This document shows, piece after piece, positions 13,655-56,195 of a stretch of DNA of 64,000 bases. Both the position numbers and the translations under genes were made by a program. The notes beneath the pieces are model-generated. The model saw only the letters and a program-made list of their open reading frames with translations. It was not told the DNA's origin and searched no databases. Source of the DNA: Escherichia phage vB_EcoM_C2-3; sequence record OK076929.1; one strand, given 5' to 3'. Within the stretch, counting starts at the first letter, position 1, and each line of letters begins with the position of its first letter.

Positions 13655-13679
13655 TAGTCTCCTTCGGGAGACTTTTTTC
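13655..13679 (+). terminator. intrinsic terminator (agtctcc-ttcg-ggagact + TTTTTT)
   Basis: 7-bp stem, UUCG loop, T6 run. Confidence 0.65.
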
Positions 13680-13688
13680 ATTTTACCG

Positions 13689-13718
13689 GTTTACTTTCCG
13701 TTTGAGCTGTGGTACTAT
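13689..13718 (+). promoter_or_regulatory. early promoter
   Basis: gtttac 13689-13694, tggtactatacaactatc cassette. Confidence 0.5.
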
Positions 13719-13746
13719 ACAACTATCGGATAAAGAGGAGAACATC

Positions 13747-17257: not shown

Positions 17258-17280
17258 TTTCAAAAATTTTTCACAAAACT

Positions 17281-17310
17281 GTTTACAAACATAAAGCTTT
17301 ATGGTACTAT
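17281..17310 (+). promoter_or_regulatory. early promoter
   Basis: gtttac 17281-17286, tggtactatacaactatc cassette. Confidence 0.5.
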
Positions 17311-17346
17311 ACAACTATCAAAACAAACACTTAAACGGAAAACAAA

Positions 17347-19200: not shown

Positions 19201-19230
19201 GTTTACAAGACTGTTCCTCTGTGGTACTAT
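19201..19230 (+). promoter_or_regulatory. early promoter (repeat cassette)
   Basis: gtttacaagactgttcctctgtggtactatacaactatcaact identical to the 45896 copy. Confidence 0.55.
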
Positions 19231-19258
19231 ACAACTATCAACTACGGAGGAACACAAA

Positions 19259-30268: not shown

Positions 30269-30580
30269 ATGATTAGTTTTGAGCGGTACGTGGTAGAGAG
30301 TTGGAAGGGTTTTGATATGTTCGGTAATGACTATTATTTTTACGAATGTAATCTAAATCCTAGTTTTTGGGCTGGACGTGAACGAGATCTCGAAGAAATT
30401 AATGCTCGTGCCGAATTGTTAGGTGAATTGCCTACGGTTTATTTTACCTTTGATGCGTCTGGATTTGTTATCCAGGTTTATTTTCCTGAAGAAAACTCTG
30501 GTGAGGATTCTGTTAATCCTCCTTATTGGGCTTACCAAGGAATTATTTCTCGTGGAACAAAACTCGAACTTAAAGAATAA
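30269..30580 (+). CDS. hypothetical protein (103 aa)
   Basis: ORF track. Confidence 0.5.
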   Translation: MISFERYVVESWKGFDMFGNDYYFYECNLNPSFWAGRERDLEEINARAELLGELPTVYFTFDASGFVIQVYFPEENSGEDSVNPPYWAYQGIISRGTKLELKE

Positions 30581-30581
30581 G

Positions 30582-30875
30582 ATTGAAGTCTATGGAATTC
30601 CAGATGAAGTAGGTCGTTGTCCTGGATGTCAATCAGTTACAAAACTTCTAAAGGAGCTCAATGCTCCTTTTACTTTCTATAAAGTTCTTACAAATAACGG
30701 TAAGATTGAGTATGATCGTCCTCTGATTGTATCTCTTGCTAAACGCGCTGGATTCACATCTCTTAACATTCGTTATCCAGTCATTTTCATTAATGATTCT
30801 AGACAAAAGAACATTAAACACTTCAAAGAAACTCTCATTTCACTTGGATATGATAGAGATATCATAGAAGATTAA
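30582..30875 (+). CDS. nrdH: glutaredoxin-like NrdH (start codon uncertain, no in-frame ATG)
   Basis: CPGC redox motif and thioredoxin-fold-like sequence; frame opens with ATT after upstream TAA; ORF-track extension 30423 rejected. Confidence 0.5.
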   Translation: MEVYGIPDEVGRCPGCQSVTKLLKELNAPFTFYKVLTNNGKIEYDRPLIVSLAKRAGFTSLNIRYPVIFINDSRQKNIKHFKETLISLGYDRDIIED

Positions 30876-30878
30876 GAC

Positions 30879-30899
30879 GGGCCCTCTGGGCCTTTCTTT
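30879..30899 (+). terminator. intrinsic terminator hairpin (gggcc-ctctg-ggcct + T-rich)
   Basis: GC stem followed by tttctttct. Confidence 0.5.
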
Positions 30900-30973
30900 C
30901 TCACATTCTGTATATTACCATTCTAAGCTATCGTTCCTTTCTTATCATTCCCTAAAATATTTTTCACAAAGTT

Positions 30974-31003
30974 GTTTACAACAAGTTCAAACCGTGGTAT
31001 TAT
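30974..31003 (+). promoter_or_regulatory. early promoter
   Basis: gtttac 30974-30979, 18 bp, tattat 30998-31003. Confidence 0.5.
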
Positions 31004-31033
31004 TAACATATGAATTACCTTTGAGGAATTGAT

Positions 31034-31216
31034 ATGGTTGTGGTTGATAAAGAAATTAAAAAGGGACAATATTATTTTATTAATGGTAATATTGTTCGTG
31101 TTACTTATGTAAACGGTTTTGAAGTTTATTATCTTATACTCAAGTTACATAAACAGATGATTTGTGACCGCGCTGTATTTAGTTCAGTTGCTAAGGAAAT
31201 TAAACTCCATGGGTAA
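31034..31216 (+). CDS. hypothetical protein (60 aa)
   Basis: ORF track. Confidence 0.45.
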   Translation: MVVVDKEIKKGQYYFINGNIVRVTYVNGFEVYYLILKLHKQMICDRAVFSSVAKEIKLHG

Positions 31217-31502
31217 AACGTATCGTCGTAAAGACTTGAAAGTTCGTGATTATGACTATTTTGGAAAGCGTAAAGCTCCAGACGGTGTAAGTCATAAAGA
31301 TATGGTTGAAAACATTTTTCGCTCAGATAAATGGCGTAGAATGAAAGGCATTGATTCAGAAGTTAAAGATGAGTTAAATCGTCAATTACGCGGTGAAGTA
31401 AGAAAGTTGAAAAAATCAGTTTACATTGACGATGATTTTGATTATAATACTTCTCAACGAGTTGCTAAACGTAAATCAAACGAGTGTTATCGTTACAGCT
31501 GA
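31209..31502 (+). CDS. hypothetical basic protein (about 97 aa)
   Basis: Start moved to ATG 31209; Lys/Arg-rich. Confidence 0.45.
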   Translation: MGKTYRRKDLKVRDYDYFGKRKAPDGVSHKDMVENIFRSDKWRRMKGIDSEVKDELNRQLRGEVRKLKKSVYIDDDFDYNTSQRVAKRKSNECYRYS

Positions 31503-31509
31503 GGAAATT

Positions 31510-31641
31510 ATGAATATCAAACGAATGCTTTTTAAGCAGGGGTTATACACTTTAAATGTTACTCCAAAAGGTGATACAACTAAGTGGTCAGTAAATGACT
31601 GGATTAAATTTATTGATGAAAATGGTAACTGGAAAATTTAA
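31510..31641 (+). CDS. hypothetical small protein (43 aa)
   Basis: ATG after GAGGAAA SD. Confidence 0.35.
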   Translation: MNIKRMLFKQGLYTLNVTPKGDTTKWSVNDWIKFIDENGNWKI

Positions 31642-31842
31642 ATGAATCCTGAATCTAAATTATCGCAGCGAATTGCCGAAGCTCGTCGTCAGTTCTTTGA
31701 AAATATGATAGCCCAAGGTATTGATGATGAAGTTTTTCTAAACTGGTTTTGGAATCACAAATATTCAAGTTGCTCAGGAGCAATATTAATATCAGCCGCA
31801 ATGATGTATGAAGGCTGGAAGGGTGCCAAAAAGTTTAGCTAA
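31642..31842 (+). CDS. hypothetical protein (66 aa)
   Basis: ORF track; ATGA overlap. Confidence 0.5.
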   Translation: MNPESKLSQRIAEARRQFFENMIAQGIDDEVFLNWFWNHKYSSCSGAILISAAMMYEGWKGAKKFS

Positions 31843-31860
31843 GGGCTTCGGCCCTTTTTG
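31842..31860 (+). terminator. intrinsic terminator (agggc-ttcg-gccct + TTTTT)
   Basis: UUCG-loop hairpin with T-run. Confidence 0.6.
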
Positions 31861-31894
31861 GATAATAAAATTTTAACGTAATTGAGGATAATGT

Positions 31895-32221
31895 ATGACT
31901 ATTCAAATTAAAAACGTCATTAATTCTTACGCATATGATAAAGTAGTTTCTTTGCTAGAAAAAGGCGATATTGTAACTCCTCAAATTTTGGATAAATGGG
32001 AAAAAGAGCTTCATCAGACGATGAAACAGAATGATCAGAAGATTGGACGCAATACTGTCCGTGAATTGTTGGTTCAATATATCTTGTCAGAATTTGATGT
32101 TAAAGCTTTTGGTGTAGAATCTAAAGCTTATCAAAAGCATGAAATTTCCGATAAAACTATTCGTCGCATGAAAAATCAACGCAAGAAAAAATTTGCAGAC
32201 CTGAAAATTACTAAGGTATAA
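31895..32221 (+). CDS. hypothetical protein (108 aa)
   Basis: ORF track; GAGG SD. Confidence 0.55.
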   Translation: MTIQIKNVINSYAYDKVVSLLEKGDIVTPQILDKWEKELHQTMKQNDQKIGRNTVRELLVQYILSEFDVKAFGVESKAYQKHEISDKTIRRMKNQRKKKFADLKITKV

Positions 32222-32223
32222 TT

Positions 32224-32439
32224 ATGAACGAAGCTCTTATTAACGATTTACGTCTTGCTGGGTATGAAGTAAATACAAATGGCATTGGTTTAACTCAAAT
32301 TGAAGGAAACGGATTCATCCTTGAGTATGAATTTAGCCAATGGTGGTTATATGCCAATTACGGCGAATTGATTGAATATGTTGATCAATTTGATTCACTA
32401 GATGCAGCTCTTGAAGCGGCTAAGTTGATGAATGTATGA
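32224..32439 (+). CDS. hypothetical protein (71 aa)
   Basis: ORF track. Confidence 0.5.
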   Translation: MNEALINDLRLAGYEVNTNGIGLTQIEGNGFILEYEFSQWWLYANYGELIEYVDQFDSLDAALEAAKLMNV

Positions 32440-32705
32440 AATTTATTAATATTTCTATTACTATTGAAAATTATGGCATTTTCTATGTTGACCAATACAT
32501 GAAAATTTCATTTTTCCCAAATAAGACTGGTGTTGGATATTGGGAAAGCCATGTTTCTGAATTAAATGAAAGTGAATATGTTAGTACACATGAAAAGTTT
32601 TTAGACTTTTTATATCATGCTGATCTAACTAGTCATTATATAGATATTCATGAATTTAAAAAGATGATGGAGAAAGTATTCCAAGCATACTGTTTACTTA
32701 GATAA
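32436..32705 (+). CDS. hypothetical protein (89 aa)
   Basis: ORF track. Confidence 0.5.
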   Translation: MKFINISITIENYGIFYVDQYMKISFFPNKTGVGYWESHVSELNESEYVSTHEKFLDFLYHADLTSHYIDIHEFKKMMEKVFQAYCLLR

Positions 32706-32716
32706 CTGATATCCTC

Positions 32717-32755
32717 TATGCTTTAAGATAGATCTTCAAATATTATGATATAATA
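32717..32755 (+). promoter_or_regulatory. candidate MotA-dependent middle promoter upstream of gene 55
   Basis: MotA-box-like taTGCTTTA at 32717-32725; downstream TATTAT/TATAAT; spacing not canonical. Confidence 0.3.
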
Positions 32756-32783
32756 GATCTATGAATTGAGCTAAGAGGTGAAA

Positions 32784-33341
32784 ATGTCAGAAACTAAGCC
32801 TAAATATAATTACGTAAACAATAAAGAGCTTTTACAAGCTATTATTGATTGGAAAACAGAATTAGCAAATAATAAAGACCCAAATAAAGTAGTTCGTCAG
32901 AATGATACTATCGGATTAGCCATTATGCTTATTGCAGAAGGCTTATCTAAACGTTTCAACTTTTCAGGATACACCCAGTCTTGGAAACAAGAAATGATTG
33001 CAGATGGTATAGAAGCTTCTATTAAGGGGCTTCATAATTTTGATGAAACGAAATATAAAAACCCACATGCATATATAACTCAAGCTTGTTTTAATGCATT
33101 CGTCCAGCGTATTAAAAAAGAACGTAAGGAAGTTGCAAAGAAATATAGTTACTTCGTTCACAATGTCTATGACAGTCGTGACGACGATATGGTTGCGTTA
33201 GTAGATGAAACTTTTATTCAAGACATCTACGATAAAATGACGCATTACGAAGAATCAACCTATAGAACACCGGGGGCTGAAAAGAAAAGTGTTGTAGACG
33301 ATTCTCCTAGTTTGGATTTTTTATATGAGGCTAACGATTAA
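32784..33341 (+). CDS. 55: late-transcription sigma factor gp55
   Basis: 185 aa from [10 protein letters not shown], recognised as T4 gp55. Confidence 0.9.
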
Positions 33342-33543
33342 CCTCTCCGGATTCTTGGAAGAAATACCTGAAGTTGAAGCTATTCCCTATTTACTTAAAA
33401 TGTATCTCAGGGAAGTTTTAGCTCTTGACATTGATATTGATCCAGAAAATCCGTATGATACCGCTTTTAAATCTAATGGTGTAGAATTAAATTACAGGTA
33501 TCATTTAACAGATGATGATTTTTATTTTATATTAGAGAAATAA
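33325..33543 (+). CDS. hypothetical protein (72 aa)
   Basis: ORF track. Confidence 0.45.
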
Positions 33544-33544
33544 T

Positions 33545-33862
33545 ATGACTGATAAACCCGAAATTAATGATGAAGTGGAAAAGCTTATTTCTTCTATTGA
33601 AGAAAAGAACCGTCTTGAAGCAGAAAGAAAAGCAAATAAGTTATTGTCTAAAAACAAACGCGAACTGAATCGTCTTTATAAGCACGCTCAGATTGCAGCT
33701 GAAAACAATAATTTTGCTCAATACGAATATGCTATCAAGAAAAGTCGGGATATTCTAAAACAGCCATATAACGATGAACTCATCAGTATTCTTTGGAAGA
33801 CTACTAGATCGCAAATTGAGGATATGATTGATGCTTACACACGTAAAATTCAAGCGTCTTAA
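33545..33862 (+). CDS. hypothetical protein (105 aa)
   Basis: ORF track. Confidence 0.5.
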   Translation: MTDKPEINDEVEKLISSIEEKNRLEAERKANKLLSKNKRELNRLYKHAQIAAENNNFAQYEYAIKKSRDILKQPYNDELISILWKTTRSQIEDMIDAYTRKIQAS

Positions 33863-34034
33863 AATTAATGCAGGATTTACTGAATCTTTGAATGGTCATC
33901 TTTGTGTGAAAATTTCTGAAAAAGAATACCATGATAGTTCAATTAAAGAAGTTAATCCTCCTATTGTAAGAGCAGACCCTAATATGAAAGTGTGGGTTGA
34001 TTCTTATCAAGTCAAAAAATGGTGGCAGTTATGA
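33828..34034 (+). CDS. hypothetical protein (68 aa)
   Basis: ORF track. Confidence 0.45.
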   Translation: MMLTHVKFKRLKINAGFTESLNGHLCVKISEKEYHDSSIKEVNPPIVRADPNMKVWVDSYQVKKWWQL

Positions 34035-34037
34035 AAG

Positions 34038-34211
34038 ATGAACATCCAGACTTCTGAAATAGATTATAATAAAATTCGTTCCTCTAAAGTAGAAATGATG
34101 AGACGCTTTAAAGAGTCTCATGATAAAGCTAAAGCAGAAGGAACTATAAAATATAAGCGCATAAAATTTAAAAGTTCTAACGAGCCTCTGTATGGCGTAT
34201 TATGTGGATAG
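34038..34211 (+). CDS. hypothetical small protein (57 aa)
   Basis: Small ORF below size cutoff ending at hairpin. Confidence 0.35.
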   Translation: MNIQTSEIDYNKIRSSKVEMMRRFKESHDKAKAEGTIKYKRIKFKSSNEPLYGVLCG

Positions 34212-34225
34212 GAGCTTCGGCTCCT
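34211..34225 (+). terminator. hairpin (ggagc-ttcg-gctcc), weak terminator
   Basis: UUCG-loop stem; poor T-run. Confidence 0.35.
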
Positions 34226-34277
34226 ATATTGCTTTATAAATTTTTGGTAAAATAAACCAAAACAAAGAGGATATTAA

Positions 34278-35480
34278 ATGAAAGTATGTATTTTTATGGC
34301 TCGAGGTCTTGAAGGTTGCGGTGTAACTAAATTTTCTCTTGAGCAGCGTGATTGGTTTATTAAAAATGGTCATGAAGTAACTTTGGTTTATGCTAAAGAT
34401 AAATCATTTACTCGTAATTGTGCGCATGATTATAAATCATTTTCAATTCCGGTTTTATTGGCAAAAGAATACGATAAAACACTTAAGCTGGTAAATGATT
34501 GTGATATTCTAATTATCAATTCAGTTCCTGCTACTTCAGTTGAAGAAGACACTATTAATAACTATAAAAAAATTATTGATAACATTAAACCTTCGGTTCG
34601 TGTTGTAGTTTATCAACATGACCATTCTTCTCTTTCTTTGCGCCGAAATTTGGGATTAGAAGAAACTGTTCGTCGAGCTGATGTTATTTTTAGTCATTCT
34701 GATAATGGCGATTTTAATAAAGTTCTGATGAAAGAATGGTATCCTGAAACAGTTTCTCTGTTTGATGATATTGAAGAAGCACCGACAGTATATAACTTTC
34801 AGCCTCCTATGGATATTGCGAAGGTTCGGTCAACCTACTGGAAAGATGTTTCTGAAATTAACATGAATATCAACCGTTGGATTGGTCGTACGACTACATG
34901 GAAAGGTTTTTATCAGATGTTTGATTTTCATGAAAAACATCTTAAACCTGCAGGACTAAGTACTATTATGGAAGGTCTGGAACGTTCTCCAGCGTTCATT
35001 CCTATTAAAGAAAAAGGAATTCCATACGAGTATTATCGTCTTCATCAAGTAGACCAAATTAAAATTGCTCCTAATTTGCCAACGCAAATTCTTGACCGTT
35101 ATGTAAATAGCGAAATGCTTGAACGCATGAGTAAATCCGGATTTGGTTATCAGCTGAGTAAGTTGGACAAAAAATATCTACAACGTTCTTTAGAATATAC
35201 TCATCTCGAGCTTGGTGCATGTGGAACAATTCCGGTATTTTGGAAATCTACTGGCGAAAATTTAAAATTCCGTGTTGATAATACTCCTTTGACCTCGCAT
35301 GATAGCGGTATCATTTGGTTTGATGAAAATGACATGGAATCAACATTTGAACGTATTAAAGAACTGTCATCTGACCGAACTCTTTATGACCGTGAACGCG
35401 AAAAAGCTTATGAATTTTTGTATCAGCATCAAGATTCAAGCTTCTGCTTTAAAGAACAGTTTGACATTATTACAAAATAA
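34278..35480 (+). CDS. a-gt: DNA alpha-glucosyltransferase
   Basis: 400 aa, recognised as T4 alpha-gt. Confidence 0.9.
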   Translation: MKVCIFMARGLEGCGVTKFSLEQRDWFIKNGHEVTLVYAKDKSFTRNCAHDYKSFSIPVLLAKEYDKTLKLVNDCDILIINSVPATSVEEDTINNYKKIIDNIKPSVRVVVYQHDHSSLSLRRNLGLEETVRRADVIFSHSDNGDFNKVLMKEWYPETVSLFDDIEEAPTVYNFQPPMDIAKVRSTYWKDVSEINMNINRWIGRTTTWKGFYQMFDFHEKHLKPAGLSTIMEGLERSPAFIPIKEKGIPYEYYRLHQVDQIKIAPNLPTQILDRYVNSEMLERMSKSGFGYQLSKLDKKYLQRSLEYTHLELGACGTIPVFWKSTGENLKFRVDNTPLTSHDSGIIWFDENDMESTFERIKELSSDRTLYDREREKAYEFLYQHQDSSFCFKEQFDIITK

Positions 35481-35497
35481 AGGGCTTCGGCCCTTTA
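35481..35497 (+). terminator. hairpin (agggc-ttcg-gccct)
   Basis: UUCG-loop stem directly after a-gt stop. Confidence 0.5.
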
Positions 35498-35519
35498 GCT
35501 TTATACGGAGTTTGATATA

Positions 35520-35660
35520 ATGATATTTCTTGGATATGTGATACTTTTTCTTGCATTTTATCTATTCACTAGAGCATGTTGGATTGGGTTCTTTAGCACA
35601 CCAGATGGGTTTATTTCAATAATTTTATTTTGCATTTCAATGACGGTTCTTGATATATGA
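35520..35660 (+). CDS. hypothetical small membrane peptide (46 aa)
   Basis: Hydrophobic small ORF, ATGA-coupled to gene 47. Confidence 0.35.
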   Translation: MIFLGYVILFLAFYLFTRACWIGFFSTPDGFISIILFCISMTVLDI

Positions 35661-36676
35661 AAATTTTAAATTTAGGTGATTGGCATTTAGGCGTTAAAGC
35701 CGATGATGAGTGGGTTCAATCCATTCAGTTGGATGGAATTAAACAAGCAATAGAATATTCTAAGAAAAATGGAATTACTACATGGATTCAATACGGCGAT
35801 ATTTTTGATGTGCGAAAAGCAATCACGCATAAAACTATGGAGTTCGCTCGTGAAATAGTTCAAATGCTTGATGATGCTGGTATTACCCTACATACTGTTG
35901 TAGGAAACCATGATATGCACTTTAAAAATACTTTAACTCCAAATGCCTCTACTGAGCTTTTGGCTAAATATCCTAATGTTAAAGTGTATGATAAGCCTAC
36001 TACAGTAGATTTTGACGGATGTTTAATTGATTTAATTCCTTGGATGTGTGAAGAAAATACTGGTGAAATTCTTGAGCACATCAAAACTTCATCTGCTTCT
36101 TTTTGCGTCGGTCACTGGGAACTGAATGGATTTTATTTTTATAAAGGAATGAAATCTCACGGTCTTGAACCTGATTTCCTTAAGACTTATAAAGAGGTGT
36201 GGTCTGGTCACTTCCATACTATCTCTGAGGCTGCTAACGTCAGATATATTGGGACACCATGGACACTAACTGCAGGTGACGAGAATGACCCTCGTGGGTT
36301 CTGGATGTTTGATACAGAAACAGAACGAATGGAATTTATTCCAAACAACACTACCTGGCATCGTAGAATTCATTATCCATTTAAAGGAAAAATTGACTAT
36401 AAAGATTTTACAAATCTATCAGTACGTGTTATAGTAACTGAAGTAGACAAAAATCTAACGAAGTTCGAATCTGAACTAGAAAAAGTTGTGCATTCATTAC
36501 GAGTTGTGTCAAAGATTGATAACTCTGTCGAGTCAGATGACAGTGAAGAAGTTGAAGTTCAATCTCTTCAGACGTTGATGGAAGAATACATTAATGCAAT
36601 TCCAGACATCACTGATTCTGACCGTGAAGCACTTATTCAATATGCAAACCAGCTATATGTAGAGGCAACACAATGA
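35657..36676 (+). CDS. 47: recombination nuclease subunit gp47 (Mre11-like)
   Basis: 339 aa; phosphoesterase motifs LGDWHLG, GNHD. Confidence 0.9.
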   Translation: MKILNLGDWHLGVKADDEWVQSIQLDGIKQAIEYSKKNGITTWIQYGDIFDVRKAITHKTMEFAREIVQMLDDAGITLHTVVGNHDMHFKNTLTPNASTELLAKYPNVKVYDKPTTVDFDGCLIDLIPWMCEENTGEILEHIKTSSASFCVGHWELNGFYFYKGMKSHGLEPDFLKTYKEVWSGHFHTISEAANVRYIGTPWTLTAGDENDPRGFWMFDTETERMEFIPNNTTWHRRIHYPFKGKIDYKDFTNLSVRVIVTEVDKNLTKFESELEKVVHSLRVVSKIDNSVESDDSEEVEVQSLQTLMEEYINAIPDITDSDREALIQYANQLYVEATQ

Positions 36677-36936
36677 CTTTTGATGAATTTAAAAATGTTA
36701 TGATGAGTCAGCATTTTGAATGCGAAGTAAAAGATGATATTGGGCATAAAGAAATTATTGAATATTGGTTTGAACCGTTAGAGGTTGAAGATAATTGTAT
36801 TAAAAAGGTTACAGTCTGCACTGACTGGGCTGTATCTTTTAACTTCAACATTTTAGATAATGACACACCTAAATCATTACAAGATATGGCTGTATCTTGT
36901 ATTAAGGATGCATACTGTGAAGTTTTCGACATTTGA
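36673..36936 (+). CDS. hypothetical protein (87 aa)
   Basis: ORF track; ATGA overlap with gene 47. Confidence 0.5.
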   Translation: MTFDEFKNVMMSQHFECEVKDDIGHKEIIEYWFEPLEVEDNCIKKVTVCTDWAVSFNFNILDNDTPKSLQDMAVSCIKDAYCEVFDI

Positions 36937-37123
36937 CATTAATGATGAATTCATAGCAAATATTGATTATACCGAAGAAGATTCTAGATATGTTGGAATA
37001 ATTTATATCACATCAAAAGCAGCACAAGGTGTTGTTTGCATGGCTGAATTTGATGAATACTTTTTAGATTATGATGATATGATAGAATGGTCTAAAAGAT
37101 ACATTAAAAGGAATCTTTTGTGA
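36908..37123 (+). CDS. hypothetical protein (about 71 aa) whose N-terminus is duplicated in downstream HNH gene
   Basis: N-terminus FSTFDINDEFI; 19-bp ttgacattaatgatgaatt repeated at 36933 and 37136. Confidence 0.4.
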   Translation: MHTVKFSTFDINDEFIANIDYTEEDSRYVGIIYITSKAAQGVVCMAEFDEYFLDYDDMIEWSKRYIKRNLL

Positions 37124-37974
37124 AGAATTTTAAACTTGACATTAATGATGAATTTTTAATAAAGGAATTAGTTGAAAAATTAGCGTTGAGTGAAGAAGAC
37201 GCCAAGTCTTACATTAATTTTATTTCTATGAATTCAACTGTTAAAACTCCAGGTAAAACGGAAGCACATCACGTGCTTCCTAAATCAATATTTCCTGAAT
37301 ATTTAAAATCTACATGGAATTTAGTTAATTTAAGTCATTTTAATCATTTTAAAGCACATTTCTTATTAGCAAAAGGTAAAAATGGAAAAATGCTAAATGC
37401 TTTAAATAGAATGATGTCAGGAAAAACATATAAAAATTTATCTTTAGCCGAAGTTGATTTAATAGCTGCTGAATATAGTTTTATAAAACAAGATGTAAGT
37501 GACACAATATCAAAAAGGCTTCAACAATATTATTCAAATCCGCAAAATAGAAATGCTGCTAGAGAAAGGGCATTAAAATATTTTTCAGTAGCAAAAAATA
37601 GGAAAGATAACAAAGAAAGATTAAATAGTTTTAAAACAAAACAAAAAATTTCAATGGCTTCAAGGGAATGGTTTAATAACGAAGAAAATAAAATTAAACA
37701 CCAAAAGGCTGTTCGTGCTGCTTTATCAAAACCTGAATATAAAATAGCTATATCAAATTCAGTAGCTGCTAGTTGGAAAAATCCGGAGATTAGAAAAGCT
37801 CATATAGCATCTCGACGAAAAGGCTATCATTGGGATAATAAAGATAAATTGTATGAATTGTGGATATCATATAATCGTCCTAAACATGTGATGTTTAGGA
37901 AAATGTTAGTTAAGAACGGATATCCAATAGAGGCTTCATTACAGGCTTTAGTTAAAGAATTTTCTTCATTGTGA
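37120..37974 (+). CDS. free-standing HNH homing endonuclease
   Basis: HNH-like motif HHVLPKS...NLVNLSHFNHFKAH; GTG start overlapping upstream stop; between 47 and 46. Confidence 0.65.
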   Translation: MKNFKLDINDEFLIKELVEKLALSEEDAKSYINFISMNSTVKTPGKTEAHHVLPKSIFPEYLKSTWNLVNLSHFNHFKAHFLLAKGKNGKMLNALNRMMSGKTYKNLSLAEVDLIAAEYSFIKQDVSDTISKRLQQYYSNPQNRNAARERALKYFSVAKNRKDNKERLNSFKTKQKISMASREWFNNEENKIKHQKAVRAALSKPEYKIAISNSVAASWKNPEIRKAHIASRRKGYHWDNKDKLYELWISYNRPKHVMFRKMLVKNGYPIEASLQALVKEFSSL

Positions 37975-37989
37975 ACAATTGGATACAAA

Positions 37990-39672
37990 ATGAAATCATT
38001 TAAACTTAATAGAGTAAAATATAAAAATATAATGTCAGTTGGTCAAAATGGAGTTGACATTCAATTAGATAAGGTTCAAAAAACTCTTATTACTGGCCGA
38101 AATGGCGGTGGTAAGTCTACTATGTTAGAAGCCATCACATTTGGGCTTTTTGGCAAACCATTTCGTGATGTAAAGAAAGGTCAATTAATAAACAGCACAA
38201 ATAAGAAAGAACTTTTAGTTGAACTGTGGATGGAATATGATGAGAAAAAGTACTATATCAAAAGAGGACAAAAACCAAACGTTTTCGAAATCACCGTTAA
38301 CGGTACACGTCTTAATGAATCTGCCAGCAGTAAAGATTTCCAAGCAGAATTTGAACAGCTTATCGGAATGTCATATGCCAGTTTCAAGCAGATTGTTGTC
38401 CTTGGTACAGCAGGGTATACCCCTTTCATGGGTTTGTCGACCCCTGCGCGAAGAAAGCTTGTGGAAGACCTGCTTGAGGTAGGAACATTAGCTGAAATGG
38501 ATAAGCTTAATAAAGCACTAATACGTGAATTAAATTCACAAAACCAAGTGCTTGATGTTAAAAAAGATAGTATTATCCAACAAATTAAAATATATAATGA
38601 TAACGTTGAACGCCAGAAAAAATTAACGGGTGACAACCTTACTCGTCTACAAAATATGTATGATGATTTGGCAAAAGAAGCTAGAACGCTAAAATCGGAA
38701 ATAGAAGAAGCTAATGAAAGATTAGTTAATATTGTTTTAGATGAAGACCCGACTGATGCATTTAATAAAATCGGTCAAGAAGCAGTTTTAATTAAATCAA
38801 AAATTGACTCGTATAATAAAGTCATTAATATGTATCACGAAGGTGGATTATGTCCAACCTGCTTGTCACAATTAAGTTCCGGTGATAAAGTTGTTTCTAA
38901 AATTAAAGATAAAGTTTCTGAATGTACACATTCGTTTGAACAGCTTTCAACACACCGTGATAATTTAAAAGTTCTTGTTGATGAATACCGAGATAATATT
39001 AAAACCCAACAGTCGTTGGCAAATGATATTCGCAATAAAAAGCAATCTCTAATCACGACGGTAGATAAAGCTAAAAAAGTTAAAGCGGCTATAGAAAAAG
39101 CATCTTCTGAGTTTATTGACCATGCTGATGAAATAGCACTGCTTCAAGAAGAACTTGATAAAATTGTTAAGACAAAAACTAATTTAGTAATGGAAAAATA
39201 CCACCGAGGAATTTTGACTGATATGCTCAAAGATTCTGGTATTAAAGGTGCTATTATTAAAAAGTACATTCCATTATTTAATAAGCAGATTAACCATTAT
39301 CTTAAAATAATGGAAGCGGATTATGTGTTTACATTAGATGAAGAATTTAATGAGACAATTAAATCCCGTGGTCGTGAAGATTTTAGTTATGCTTCATTTA
39401 GTGAAGGTGAAAAGGCACGAATTGATATTGCTCTTTTATTTACTTGGCGTGATATTGCTTCTATCGTATCTGGTGTTAGTATTAGTACATTAATTCTTGA
39501 TGAAGTGTTTGATGGGTCATTTGATGCCGAAGGTATTAAAGGTGTAGCTAATATTATAAATTCAATGAAAAACACTAATGTTTTTATAATTTCGCATAAA
39601 GACCATGACCCGCAAGAATATGGTCAGCATCTTCAAATGAAGAAAGTTGGTCGATTTACTGTAATGGTTTAA
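37990..39672 (+). CDS. 46: recombination ATPase gp46 (Rad50-like)
   Basis: 560 aa; Walker A GRNGGGKST, coiled-coil middle, zinc hook CPTC. Confidence 0.9.
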   Translation: MKSFKLNRVKYKNIMSVGQNGVDIQLDKVQKTLITGRNGGGKSTMLEAITFGLFGKPFRDVKKGQLINSTNKKELLVELWMEYDEKKYYIKRGQKPNVFEITVNGTRLNESASSKDFQAEFEQLIGMSYASFKQIVVLGTAGYTPFMGLSTPARRKLVEDLLEVGTLAEMDKLNKALIRELNSQNQVLDVKKDSIIQQIKIYNDNVERQKKLTGDNLTRLQNMYDDLAKEARTLKSEIEEANERLVNIVLDEDPTDAFNKIGQEAVLIKSKIDSYNKVINMYHEGGLCPTCLSQLSSGDKVVSKIKDKVSECTHSFEQLSTHRDNLKVLVDEYRDNIKTQQSLANDIRNKKQSLITTVDKAKKVKAAIEKASSEFIDHADEIALLQEELDKIVKTKTNLVMEKYHRGILTDMLKDSGIKGAIIKKYIPLFNKQINHYLKIMEADYVFTLDEEFNETIKSRGREDFSYASFSEGEKARIDIALLFTWRDIASIVSGVSISTLILDEVFDGSFDAEGIKGVANIINSMKNTNVFIISHKDHDPQEYGQHLQMKKVGRFTVMV

Positions 39673-39684
39673 TTTATAAGAGAT

Positions 39685-39710
39685 TATGCTTTAATTTATT
39701 AGAGTATAAT
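39685..39710 (+). promoter_or_regulatory. MotA-dependent middle promoter candidate
   Basis: MotA box TGCTTTA at 39687-39693, 11 bp, TATAAT at 39705-39710. Confidence 0.5.
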
Positions 39711-39727
39711 CTCTATGGAGGAAAAAC

Positions 39728-39916
39728 ATGGAATATTCAACTGGACAGCATTTATTAACTTTTCCTGAAATAAAACGATATATTCTGAGAAATAATTTTT
39801 CTAATGAAGAGCATATAGTTACTGAATCTATGCTTAGGAATGCATTTAAAGCAGAATATACAAAAATAATGTCCAATAGAAATGAAGCTTGGACTGTTAC
39901 TGATTATTATGACTAA
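39728..39916 (+). CDS. hypothetical protein (62 aa; T4 45.2 position)
   Basis: ORF track; GGAGG SD. Confidence 0.55.
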   Translation: MEYSTGQHLLTFPEIKRYILRNNFSNEEHIVTESMLRNAFKAEYTKIMSNRNEAWTVTDYYD

Positions 39917-45812: not shown

Positions 45813-45895
45813 CATACAAGTAATATAAATCTATACTTATGAAAAACAGATGATTCTGGACCTTTAGAATTCCCTAAAAAATTTTTCACAAAACT

Positions 45896-45925
45896 GTTTA
45901 CAAGACTGTTCCTCTGTGGTACTAT
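45896..45925 (+). promoter_or_regulatory. early promoter (repeat cassette)
   Basis: ttttcacaaaactgtttacaagactgttcctctgtggtactatacaactatcaacta; near-identical to 2644-2700 and 19201-19245. Confidence 0.55.
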
Positions 45926-45959
45926 ACAACTATCAACTAATACGGATTTGGAGAATAAA

Positions 45960-56105: not shown

Positions 56106-56129
56106 GGACTCCTTCGGGAGTCCTTTTTT
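56106..56129 (+). terminator. intrinsic terminator (ggactcc-ttcg-ggagtcc + TTTTTT)
   Basis: 7-bp stem, UUCG loop, T6. Confidence 0.7.
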
Positions 56130-56138
56130 CATTTTACC

Positions 56139-56169
56139 GGTTTACTTTCCAAAATGAGTATGGTATAAT
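56139..56169 (+). promoter_or_regulatory. early promoter
   Basis: gtttac 56139-56144, tataat 56164-56169. Confidence 0.5.
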
Positions 56170-56195
56170 AAAATTATCTTATAGAGGAGAGCACT

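Follow-up and report, generated by a model that had tools for sequence, protein, structure and literature searches.

A predicted Mob-family homing endonuclease gene at the 46.1/46 junction of a T6-like phage starts with the former start of gene 46

A known system resembling the element considered here is MobE of phage T4, which nicks the 5' region of the downstream gene nrdB; a polymorphic patch in that region was proposed to provide self-immunity, and an internal terminator of mobE limits its transcript (PMC2790892). The present analysis deals with a predicted homing endonuclease gene (HEG) of the same family, located between genes 46.1 and 46 in a stretch of 64,000 nucleotides of Escherichia phage vB_EcoM_C2-3 (OK076929.1). 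The whole stretch is referred to as the window, and positions are counted from its first letter. The phage is a T6-like Tequatrovirus, with FJ1, F26, KIT03 and T6 as best matches (98.7–99.3% identity over 36600–38100). The records of T6 and T2 already annotate the HEG as 'homing endonuclease' or 'mob-like', and it was counted in the HEG tallies of PMC2993671. In the literature searched, mob-like HEGs of T2, T6 and RB51 appear only in tallies, and neither this HEG nor its junction is described. The element is an uncharacterised member of a known family and no new kind of element; the mosaic 5' end and the takeover of a start codon presented below are a neat detail which is apparently undescribed.

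The locus of the HEG was compared with 518 related phage records. The full query is spanned by 71 of them, while the rest match in two pieces and are 870 bp shorter (631 versus 1501 bp). About 71 filled alleles thus face about 430 empty ones, with flanks that are 95–99% identical. An earlier note, made from the letters of the window alone, had proposed a comparison with such empty sites as a check and would have taken their absence as a refutation of its reading; as they were found in about 430 of the 518 records, this refutation does not apply. The junctions were read directly by comparing empty alleles (T4, PST, RB5, wV7, UAB_60) with filled ones (the window, T6, T2, RB51), which led to the following features:

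37120–37974, + strand: predicted Mob-family HEG, intact, 284 amino acids.
37138–38007, + strand: insert of 870 bp, absent from the empty alleles, junctions read directly.
37120–37137, + strand: original start of gene 46, now start of the HEG; GTGAAGAATTTTAAACTT, i.e. GTG and codons 2–6 (MKNFKL), preceded by an AAGGA ribosome-binding site; left member of the flanking repeat.
37975–38007, + strand: 3' end of the insert; 15-nt spacer ACAATTGGATACAAA with a weak GGA ribosome-binding site, followed by the rebuilt gene 46 start ATGAAATCATTTAAACTT (MKSFKL); right member of the flanking repeat.
37990–39672, + strand: gene 46, Rad50/SbcC-like recombination nuclease subunit, intact with 560 amino acids; Pfam AAA_23, SMC_N and Rad50_zn_hook.

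The five empty alleles read ...AAAAGGAATCTTTTGTGAAGAATTTTAAACT(T/A)AA..., where 46.1 ends and gene 46 begins. The start codon of gene 46 is here a GTG (position 37120 in the window) that overlaps the TGA of 46.1 and opens the sequence MKNFKLNR.... In the window, GTGAAGAATTTTAAACTT is followed by GACATTAATGATGAATTT... within the HEG, and gene 46 resumes 870 bp further on as ACAATTGGATACAAA-ATGAAATCATTTAAACTT-AATAGAGTA.... The expected N-terminus is MKNFKLDINDEF... for the HEG product and MKSFKLNR... for gp46, which carries N3S relative to T4. The open reading frame (ORF) of the HEG is a mosaic of three parts: codons 1–6 of gene 46, a copy of codons 7–12 of 46.1 (17–19 nt) and the Mob body. It uses the former ribosome-binding site and GTG of gene 46, and since this GTG overlaps the 46.1 stop, translation of the HEG would be coupled to that of 46.1.

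At the other end, the stop codon of the HEG lies 15 nt before the ATG of gene 46. The 3' end of the insert was found in all filled alleles read at this position (T6, T2, RB51, Ac3, SYGD1). It supplies the spacer, the ATG and rewritten codons 1–3, which differ from the empty-allele start at 5 of 9 nucleotides, so that gene 46 stays intact. The interruption of the 47–46 operon claimed in the earlier note is therefore to be revised, as gene 46 is restarted by a new ribosome-binding site, an ATG and three rewritten codons and still encodes 560 amino acids. The repeat truly bracketing the insert, which is absent from the earlier note, is the duplicated gene 46 start (37120–37137 and 37990–38007), with 13 of 18 matching positions, of which the last nine are exact. 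The register of the insert is thus ambiguous within the 9-bp repeat TTTAAACTT (37129–37137 and 37999–38007). The insert has a G+C content of 28% and a third-position G+C content (GC3) of 17%, the lowest in the operon.

In Gaprivervirus P479, Mosigvirus RPN187, Tegunavirus fHe-Yen9-01 and the unclassified phage fDHCT2, the site is likewise empty and the stop of 46.1 overlaps the gene 46 start. The presence of this arrangement in other genera indicates that it is ancestral and that the insert was gained in a subset of the Tequatroviruses. Neither the left nor the right junction gave an exact-pattern match in IMG/VR, a collection that seems to be devoid of such phages. The whole, including the mosaic start, is best explained by a HEG that has probably invaded the 46.1/46 junction of some Tequatroviruses by intronless homing.

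Two other kinds of mobile element were considered and rejected. A group I intron or intein context does not apply, as no intron-like RNA was detected (no Rfam intron family at E ≤ 1 in 35500–39800) and the HEG ORF has its own stop. A transposon was discarded because the HEG is the sole ORF of the insert, terminal inverted repeats are missing and the duplication is imperfect (13/18).

Comparative evidence assigns the 284-residue product to the free-standing homing endonucleases of the Mob family, with a predicted HNH nuclease domain. It matched PHROG 655 ('homing endonuclease') with an E-value of 2.4e-45 over residues 1–282 and PHROG 12434 ('HNH endonuclease') with an E-value of 3e-15. Identity amounts to 30–36% with mobC/mobD-annotated ORFs (tblastn) and to 99% with a 90% cluster comprising 85 sequences. 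When 1.84 billion representatives were searched with a profile, 15,531 relatives were obtained at E ≤ 0.001 and 3,565 at E ≤ 1e-10. The putative active site is as follows:

37267–37359, + strand: predicted HNH catalytic motif, H50 H51 ... W66 N67 ... H76 ... H80, on a predicted beta-beta-alpha unit.

Across 104 aligned relatives, Y31, H51, N67, H76 and H80 were invariant, and the last four were also invariant in nine close homologues. Among the 104 relatives, NUMOD3 was found in 48, Pfam HNH (PF01844) in three and HNH_5 in one; NUMOD1 or I-HmuI NUMOD-like domains occurred in four of the nine close homologues. The AlphaFold2 model of the N-terminal domain reached a predicted local distance difference test (pLDDT) score of 84, with the motif residues carried by strands 48–51 and 68–71 and helix 73–83. 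The beta-beta-alpha unit (residues 48–83) scored about 87–91, and residues 10–21, including E11 and F12, form a confidently predicted first helix. The C-terminal half was predicted as all-helical with low confidence, and no NUMOD model matched the window protein. Fold searches gave only sub-threshold matches, among which HNH-bearing chains were enriched. No direct HNH match was obtained in Pfam, NCBIfam or PDB sequences, with either the protein or the nine-sequence profile. The HNH catalytic fold is thus probable but not proven, since the assignment is based on family-level evidence and not on a direct model match. The earlier note's description of an HNH homing endonuclease holds as far as a mobile HEG in the operon is concerned, and its HNH part finds support at the level of the family.

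The same HEG is frameshifted in T2, where it is split into two coding sequences, one of them noted as 'mob-like homing endonuclease' (T2 locus L013, 2021–2873), and in RB51, where it is unannotated (locus L014, about 2021–2875). The product of RB68 is truncated to 208 amino acids. Such frameshifted and truncated copies represent the decay typical of the HEG life cycle. A hairpin was detected within the HEG:

37260–37280, + strand: 8-bp G+C-rich hairpin, GGAAGCAC-AUCAC-GUGCUUCC, over the EAHHVLP codons.

It has a minimum free energy of -15.2 kcal/mol (z -5.4), and none of 200 shuffles was as stable. No U-tract follows it on the + strand. Phage AndreasVesalius has the same 23 nt in a paralogue occupying its nrdD-nrdG slot, although the two proteins are only 35% identical; the HEG of Mosigvirus AV113 lacks them.

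Directly downstream of the insertion point, gene 46 displays a short region of strong divergence:

38007–38053, + strand: hyper-divergent gene 46 patch, nt 17–63 (codons 6–22), directly 3' of the insertion point; candidate recognition, nicking or self-immunity region.

Compared with the RB5-type empty allele, which is the majority type, 14 mismatches were counted in the 47 nt of the patch, against a background of about 2% and no mismatch at all in the 66–90 nt upstream of the junction. Allele classes were estimated from the identity bands of two diagnostic 96-nt queries:

RB5-type empty alleles: about 356.
T4-type empty alleles: about 73.
Filled alleles: about 71, all with a T4-like patch.

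T4-type empty and filled alleles differ in the patch by 2 nt only (nt 62–63). An analogous pair of patch haplotypes is formed by AV113 (filled) and RPN187 (empty). By analogy with MobE, 38007–38053 is the likely target or immunity region. In the proposed mechanism, alleles without the HEG would be nicked or cut by its product within the 5' end of gene 46, and the cassette would be copied in when the HEG-bearing genome serves as template for repair. The rewritten start codons, the divergent patch or both would then protect the genome of the carrier.

The distribution of the patch bears on the opposite history, in which the HEG is ancestral and was lost from most Tequatroviruses by precise deletion between the 9-bp TTTAAACTT repeats or, in a weaker version, only the T4-type empty alleles are revertants. 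A deletion across these repeats would regenerate the exact T4-type empty allele, so that some T4-type phages may be ex-carriers; the T4-type empties also share the HEG-linked patch to within 2 nt of the filled alleles, and decaying HEG copies do exist. However, all other genera examined have the empty arrangement as a rule, the majority RB5-type patch cannot arise by deletion, the G+C and GC3 values of the insert are the lowest of the operon, and the T4-type empties differ from the filled alleles at nt 62–63. Loss, in either version, is thus considered improbable, and gain by homing is retained.

The origin of the mosaic start was traced through a 19-mer, TTGACATTAATGATGAATT, which occurs exactly twice in the window, on the + strand:

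36933–36951, + strand: 19-mer copy 1; end of 46.2 (I, stop) and codons 6–12 of 46.1 (F DINDEF).
37136–37154, + strand: 19-mer copy 2; TT belongs to gene 46 codon 6, and the insert begins with the 17 nt that follow, GACATTAATGATGAATT (DINDEF).
36917–37123, + strand: gene 46.1 (DUF5487), GTG start at 36917; Pfam DUF5487, E 1e-48.
36673–36936, + strand: gene 46.2; Pfam T4_Y03C, E 1e-43; annotated as 46.2 in PST, RB5 and RB51.

Both positions, and the occurrence of DINDEF near the start of the two ORFs, agree exactly with the earlier note. The 19-mer encodes (F/L)DINDEF, i.e. codons 6–12 of both 46.1 and the HEG, and is part of a wider imperfect repeat of 45 nt (36916–36960 and 37119–37163) with 78% identity. 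No further copy was found in the window even with two mismatches, and none of 100 dinucleotide-preserving shuffles contained at least two matches: the 19-mer is non-random. Out of 15 pairs of exact direct repeats of at least 19 nt in the window, it is the sole pair within coding sequence, the other 14 belonging to the families of T4-type early promoters or terminator hairpins.

As to the direction of the transfer, the comparison of alleles and genera shows in several ways that copying went from 46.1 to the HEG and not the reverse. Copy 1 is invariant whether the site is filled or empty, and it overlaps the conserved end of 46.2, whose TGA stop (36934–36936) lies within it. The motif (D/H)(D/E)F is present at the same position of 46.1 in all five genera examined; in P479 it reads NLDDEF, homologous to DINDEF with different codons. 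Moreover, matches to the HEG profile across the family start mostly at positions 10–28, suggesting that the extreme N-terminus is not native to the family. The gene 46.1 itself, read directly, is unchanged in the empty alleles. Its start was assigned to the GTG at 36917 as in the annotations of PST, T6, RB5 and wV7, and not to the in-frame ATG at 36908 given by the earlier note, the Pfam model beginning at residue 4 of the ATG version.

The closest paralogue of the HEG, found in Mosigvirus AV113 and also in phiEC1, offers a parallel. It is 45% identical over residues 24–281 and occupies the same slot, the 46.2–46 interval, where it replaces 46.1. Compared with the empty RPN187, its left junction lies after about nine codons of the Mosigvirus 46.1: the HEG starts with MTKTDYETQ and 46.1 of RPN187 with MTKTDYEIQRHEF (MTKTDYEIQ). 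The right junction is situated at codons 3/4 of gene 46 (TTTAAA), with codons 1–3 rewritten (GTGAAAACA versus ATGAAATCA). A GAGGA ribosome-binding site for gene 46 is located within the 3' end of the AV113 HEG, which overlaps the start of gene 46 by 14 nt, and no gene 46 codons are present in the HEG. In both genera the cassette thus brings the HEG body and a new gene 46 start, and owes its own start to fusion with a resident 5' end. The AV113 locus (L005, 1200–2320) is devoid of 46.1, the HEG standing in its place, and 46.1 (DUF5487) is therefore apparently dispensable, at least in AV113. A Mosigvirus donor was considered as well from the new gene 46 start ATGAAATCATTTAAA, of which RPN187 shares 15 nt. 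This was not accepted as proof and is only a hint, as a constrained coding sequence is weak evidence.

The simplest and most likely route to the window allele would comprise two steps, fusion and then exchange. In an ancestor, the HEG body would have been fused to the start of 46.1 (codons 1–12), thereby replacing 46.1 in the manner of AV113. The starts of 46.1 (GTGAAGTTTTCGACATTT) and gene 46 (GTGAAGAATTTTAAACTT) resemble each other, with 12 of 18 matching positions, and in the second step they would have paired in an in-register, homeology-guided exchange. An unequal crossover with a wild-type phage would account for it and, equally well, a homeologous invasion by the left end of a break near codon 6–7 of gene 46 during homing. 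Such an exchange would restore the full 46.1 and place codons 1–6 of gene 46 in front of the DINDEF-HEG. The idea that a resident start was copied onto the endonuclease gene is thus maintained for the presence of resident sequence at its N-terminus; the small ORF is replaced as main source by the start of gene 46.

The reverse direction, with the 19-mer and DINDEF native to the HEG and acquired once by the start of the Tequatrovirus 46.1, is slightly less probable still than loss of an ancestral HEG. It would be in line with the start M-DIN-F of a Gaprivervirus Mob paralogue and with the confidently predicted first helix of the HEG (residues 10–21), which includes E11 and F12. Against it, (D/H)(D/E)F is found in 46.1 of HEG-free genera, with diverged codons for NLDDEF in P479, and copy 1 also codes for the conserved end and stop of 46.2. 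Furthermore, the closest paralogue, in AV113, is without DINDEF and has the local Mosigvirus 46.1 start, and no GACATTAATGATGAATT-like 5' end was seen among Mob HEGs at other loci, in either the tblastn matches or the alignment of close homologues.

Several points weigh against homing into the junction followed by the two-step origin of the start. Cleavage by the HEG product, its target and homing itself are all inferred. The patch haplotypes also occur, in mixed forms, in genera that are free of the HEG; they may therefore be an old polymorphism or reflect simple linkage, and immunity is to be taken as a hypothesis only. The search for the presumed Tequatrovirus intermediate, a 46.1'::HEG fusion lacking 46.1, gave no junction in one piece among 50,697 phage records and none in IMG/VR or in the metagenome scan. 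Finally, the Gaprivervirus paralogue mentioned above, from DK-13, begins with MDINF, which leaves some room for a HEG-native DIN.

It was also considered that the 19-mer might be a functional cis element under selection, such as an autorepression operator, a translational-control RNA or a promoter. T4 intron endonucleases do bind operators resembling their homing sites (PMC2988022), and the 19-mer begins with TTGACA, the sigma-70 -35 hexamer. The copies, however, drift independently. Copy 2 has changed in T2 (GATATT), leaving 18 of 19 matches, while in SYGD1 copy 1 differs at one position and copy 2 at two (TTGATATTAATAATGAATT), which leaves 16 of 19 matches and the peptide DINNEF; the identity of the copies is therefore not maintained. 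RNA folding at the two copies was no more stable than in shuffles (z -0.1 and -1.7), and the region of the new gene 46 start gave a value of +0.45. A promoter or terminator role was rejected, as promoter-like sites were absent from the repeat and showed no excess overall, and no Rfam match to either copy rose above noise. A cis function is thus highly improbable, and the 19-mer is taken as a historical recombination scar and not as a functional site.

The least probable explanation, given hardly any weight, is that of the earlier note, in which the 19-mer pair would be an insertion footprint, similar to a target-site duplication, flanking the HEG and left when insertion copied the start of the small ORF: the repeat is exact and non-random and copy 2 begins right at the left junction of the insert, but both copies are situated at the 5' end of the HEG or upstream of it, the pair brackets the body of 46.1 instead of the HEG, the empty alleles too have copy 1, 203 bp upstream of the insertion point, the insert itself is bracketed by the duplicated gene 46 start (37120–37137 and 37990–38007), and the HEG owes its start codon and first six codons to gene 46 and not to 46.1.

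A bolder reading, offered only tentatively and judged less likely than its negation, is that of a 'start-codon-hijacking' cassette dedicated to the 5' end of gene 46, the gene for the Rad50-like subunit of the gp46/47 nuclease. The mobile unit would be made of the HEG body, the new ribosome-binding site and the rewritten gene 46 codons 1–3 in two genera, and would take its own start from an upstream resident, namely 46.1 in Mosigvirus and gene 46 with a 46.1 patch in Tequatrovirus. The patch would be the determinant of nicking and immunity, T4-type phages would be immune ex-carriers, and the RB5-type phages, roughly 70%, would be susceptible. If true, this would be a new homing system, and it could cause localized marker exclusion when T-even phages are crossed.

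The operon order with the HEG is 47–46.2–46.1–HEG–46, the first gene being:

35657–36676: gene 47, Metallophos.

A second, mobB-like HEG is found in RB51 and Ac3 on the opposite strand between 46 and 45.2 (loci L019 and L018, 31961–32674), so that gene 46 is bracketed by two HEGs in these phages; the window has no ORF at the matching place (39672–39728). Ac3 (OK040907.1) is identical base for base to RB51 over 30500–37248 except for a 3.26-kb tract at 31966–35226 (Ac3 loci L003 and L018; RB51 locus L019). The tract, with gene 46 inside, is bounded exactly by the starts of the mobB-like and the Mob-like HEG; the GTG of the latter has become GTT. It contains 836 mismatches (about 25%) and has a G+C content of 47% versus 33%; the changes look synonymous and favour codons preferred by E. 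coli. Rather than natural divergence, this suggests a codon-optimised synthetic segment or a chimera produced in assembly.

Elsewhere in the window, T4-type early promoters form near-identical repeats of 40–60 nt, GTTTAC(A/T)...TGGTACTATAC (or TGGTATAAT), in front of ribosome-binding sites. Early-promoter or terminator repeats were located at about 2643–2700, 13672–13740, 17262–17330, 19201–19245, 45877–45945 and 56110–56170, and also at 1940–1975 and 2497–2530. A G+C-rich terminator hairpin, GCCCCGACC.AAAGGTTGGGGCTTTTT, is repeated in the window.

The locus provides a case, resolved to the base pair, of how a free-standing HEG may embed itself in an essential operon without harm, taking over the translation signals of the downstream gene and returning a substitute. 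It illustrates that HEG 5' ends can be built from pieces of neighbouring genes, and it names the first ~65 nt of gene 46 as candidate target for the uncharacterised Mob enzyme of T2 and T6. For annotation, the new ATG is to be taken as start of gene 46 wherever the HEG is present, and the old GTG of gene 46 as start of the HEG.

Among known systems, a transposon target-site duplication resembles the insert in that a short direct repeat (9 bp exact) brackets it. The insert differs by having no transposase, no terminal inverted repeats and an 18-bp coding duplication whose right copy is recoded at five positions, which fits donor-derived sequence fixed by recombination and not the repair of a staggered cut. 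Nucleases of the I-HmuI type share with the HEG family the architecture of a small HNH nuclease followed by helical DNA-binding modules, and 4 of the 104 relatives have an I-HmuI NUMOD-like domain; I-HmuI is intron-encoded, whereas no intron is present at the window locus. The nearest named paralogues are the MobC/MobD-annotated ORFs of e.g. PST, RB3 and RB5, with 30–36% identity over 73–83% of the protein (E 1e-11 to 1e-22) and the common motif HH...WN...H...H. In contrast to the HEG, they are found at other loci, presumably with other targets, and as far as examined share no N-terminal codons with their neighbours. The HEG of AV113 and phiEC1 has the same slot, the same right junction and an N-terminus borrowed from the local 46.1, but in AV113 it replaces 46.1 and starts with codons 1–9 of that gene.

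MobE, encoded between nrdA and nrdB of T4 (PMC2790892), is similar in several respects. At the level of the family, both proteins share a Mob N-terminal HNH-type domain, predicted in the case of the HEG, and a variable C-terminal domain, and both genes are promoterless members of an operon of essential or conserved genes, with a start overlapping the stop of the upstream gene, which implies translational coupling. A target in the 5' region of the downstream gene beside a polymorphic patch and spread by recombination-dependent homing with co-conversion would likewise be common features. Unlike the HEG, mobE has its own ATG and leaves the start of nrdB untouched. The HEG begins with the start and six codons of the downstream gene followed by a patch of the upstream gene, and hands gene 46 a replacement start.

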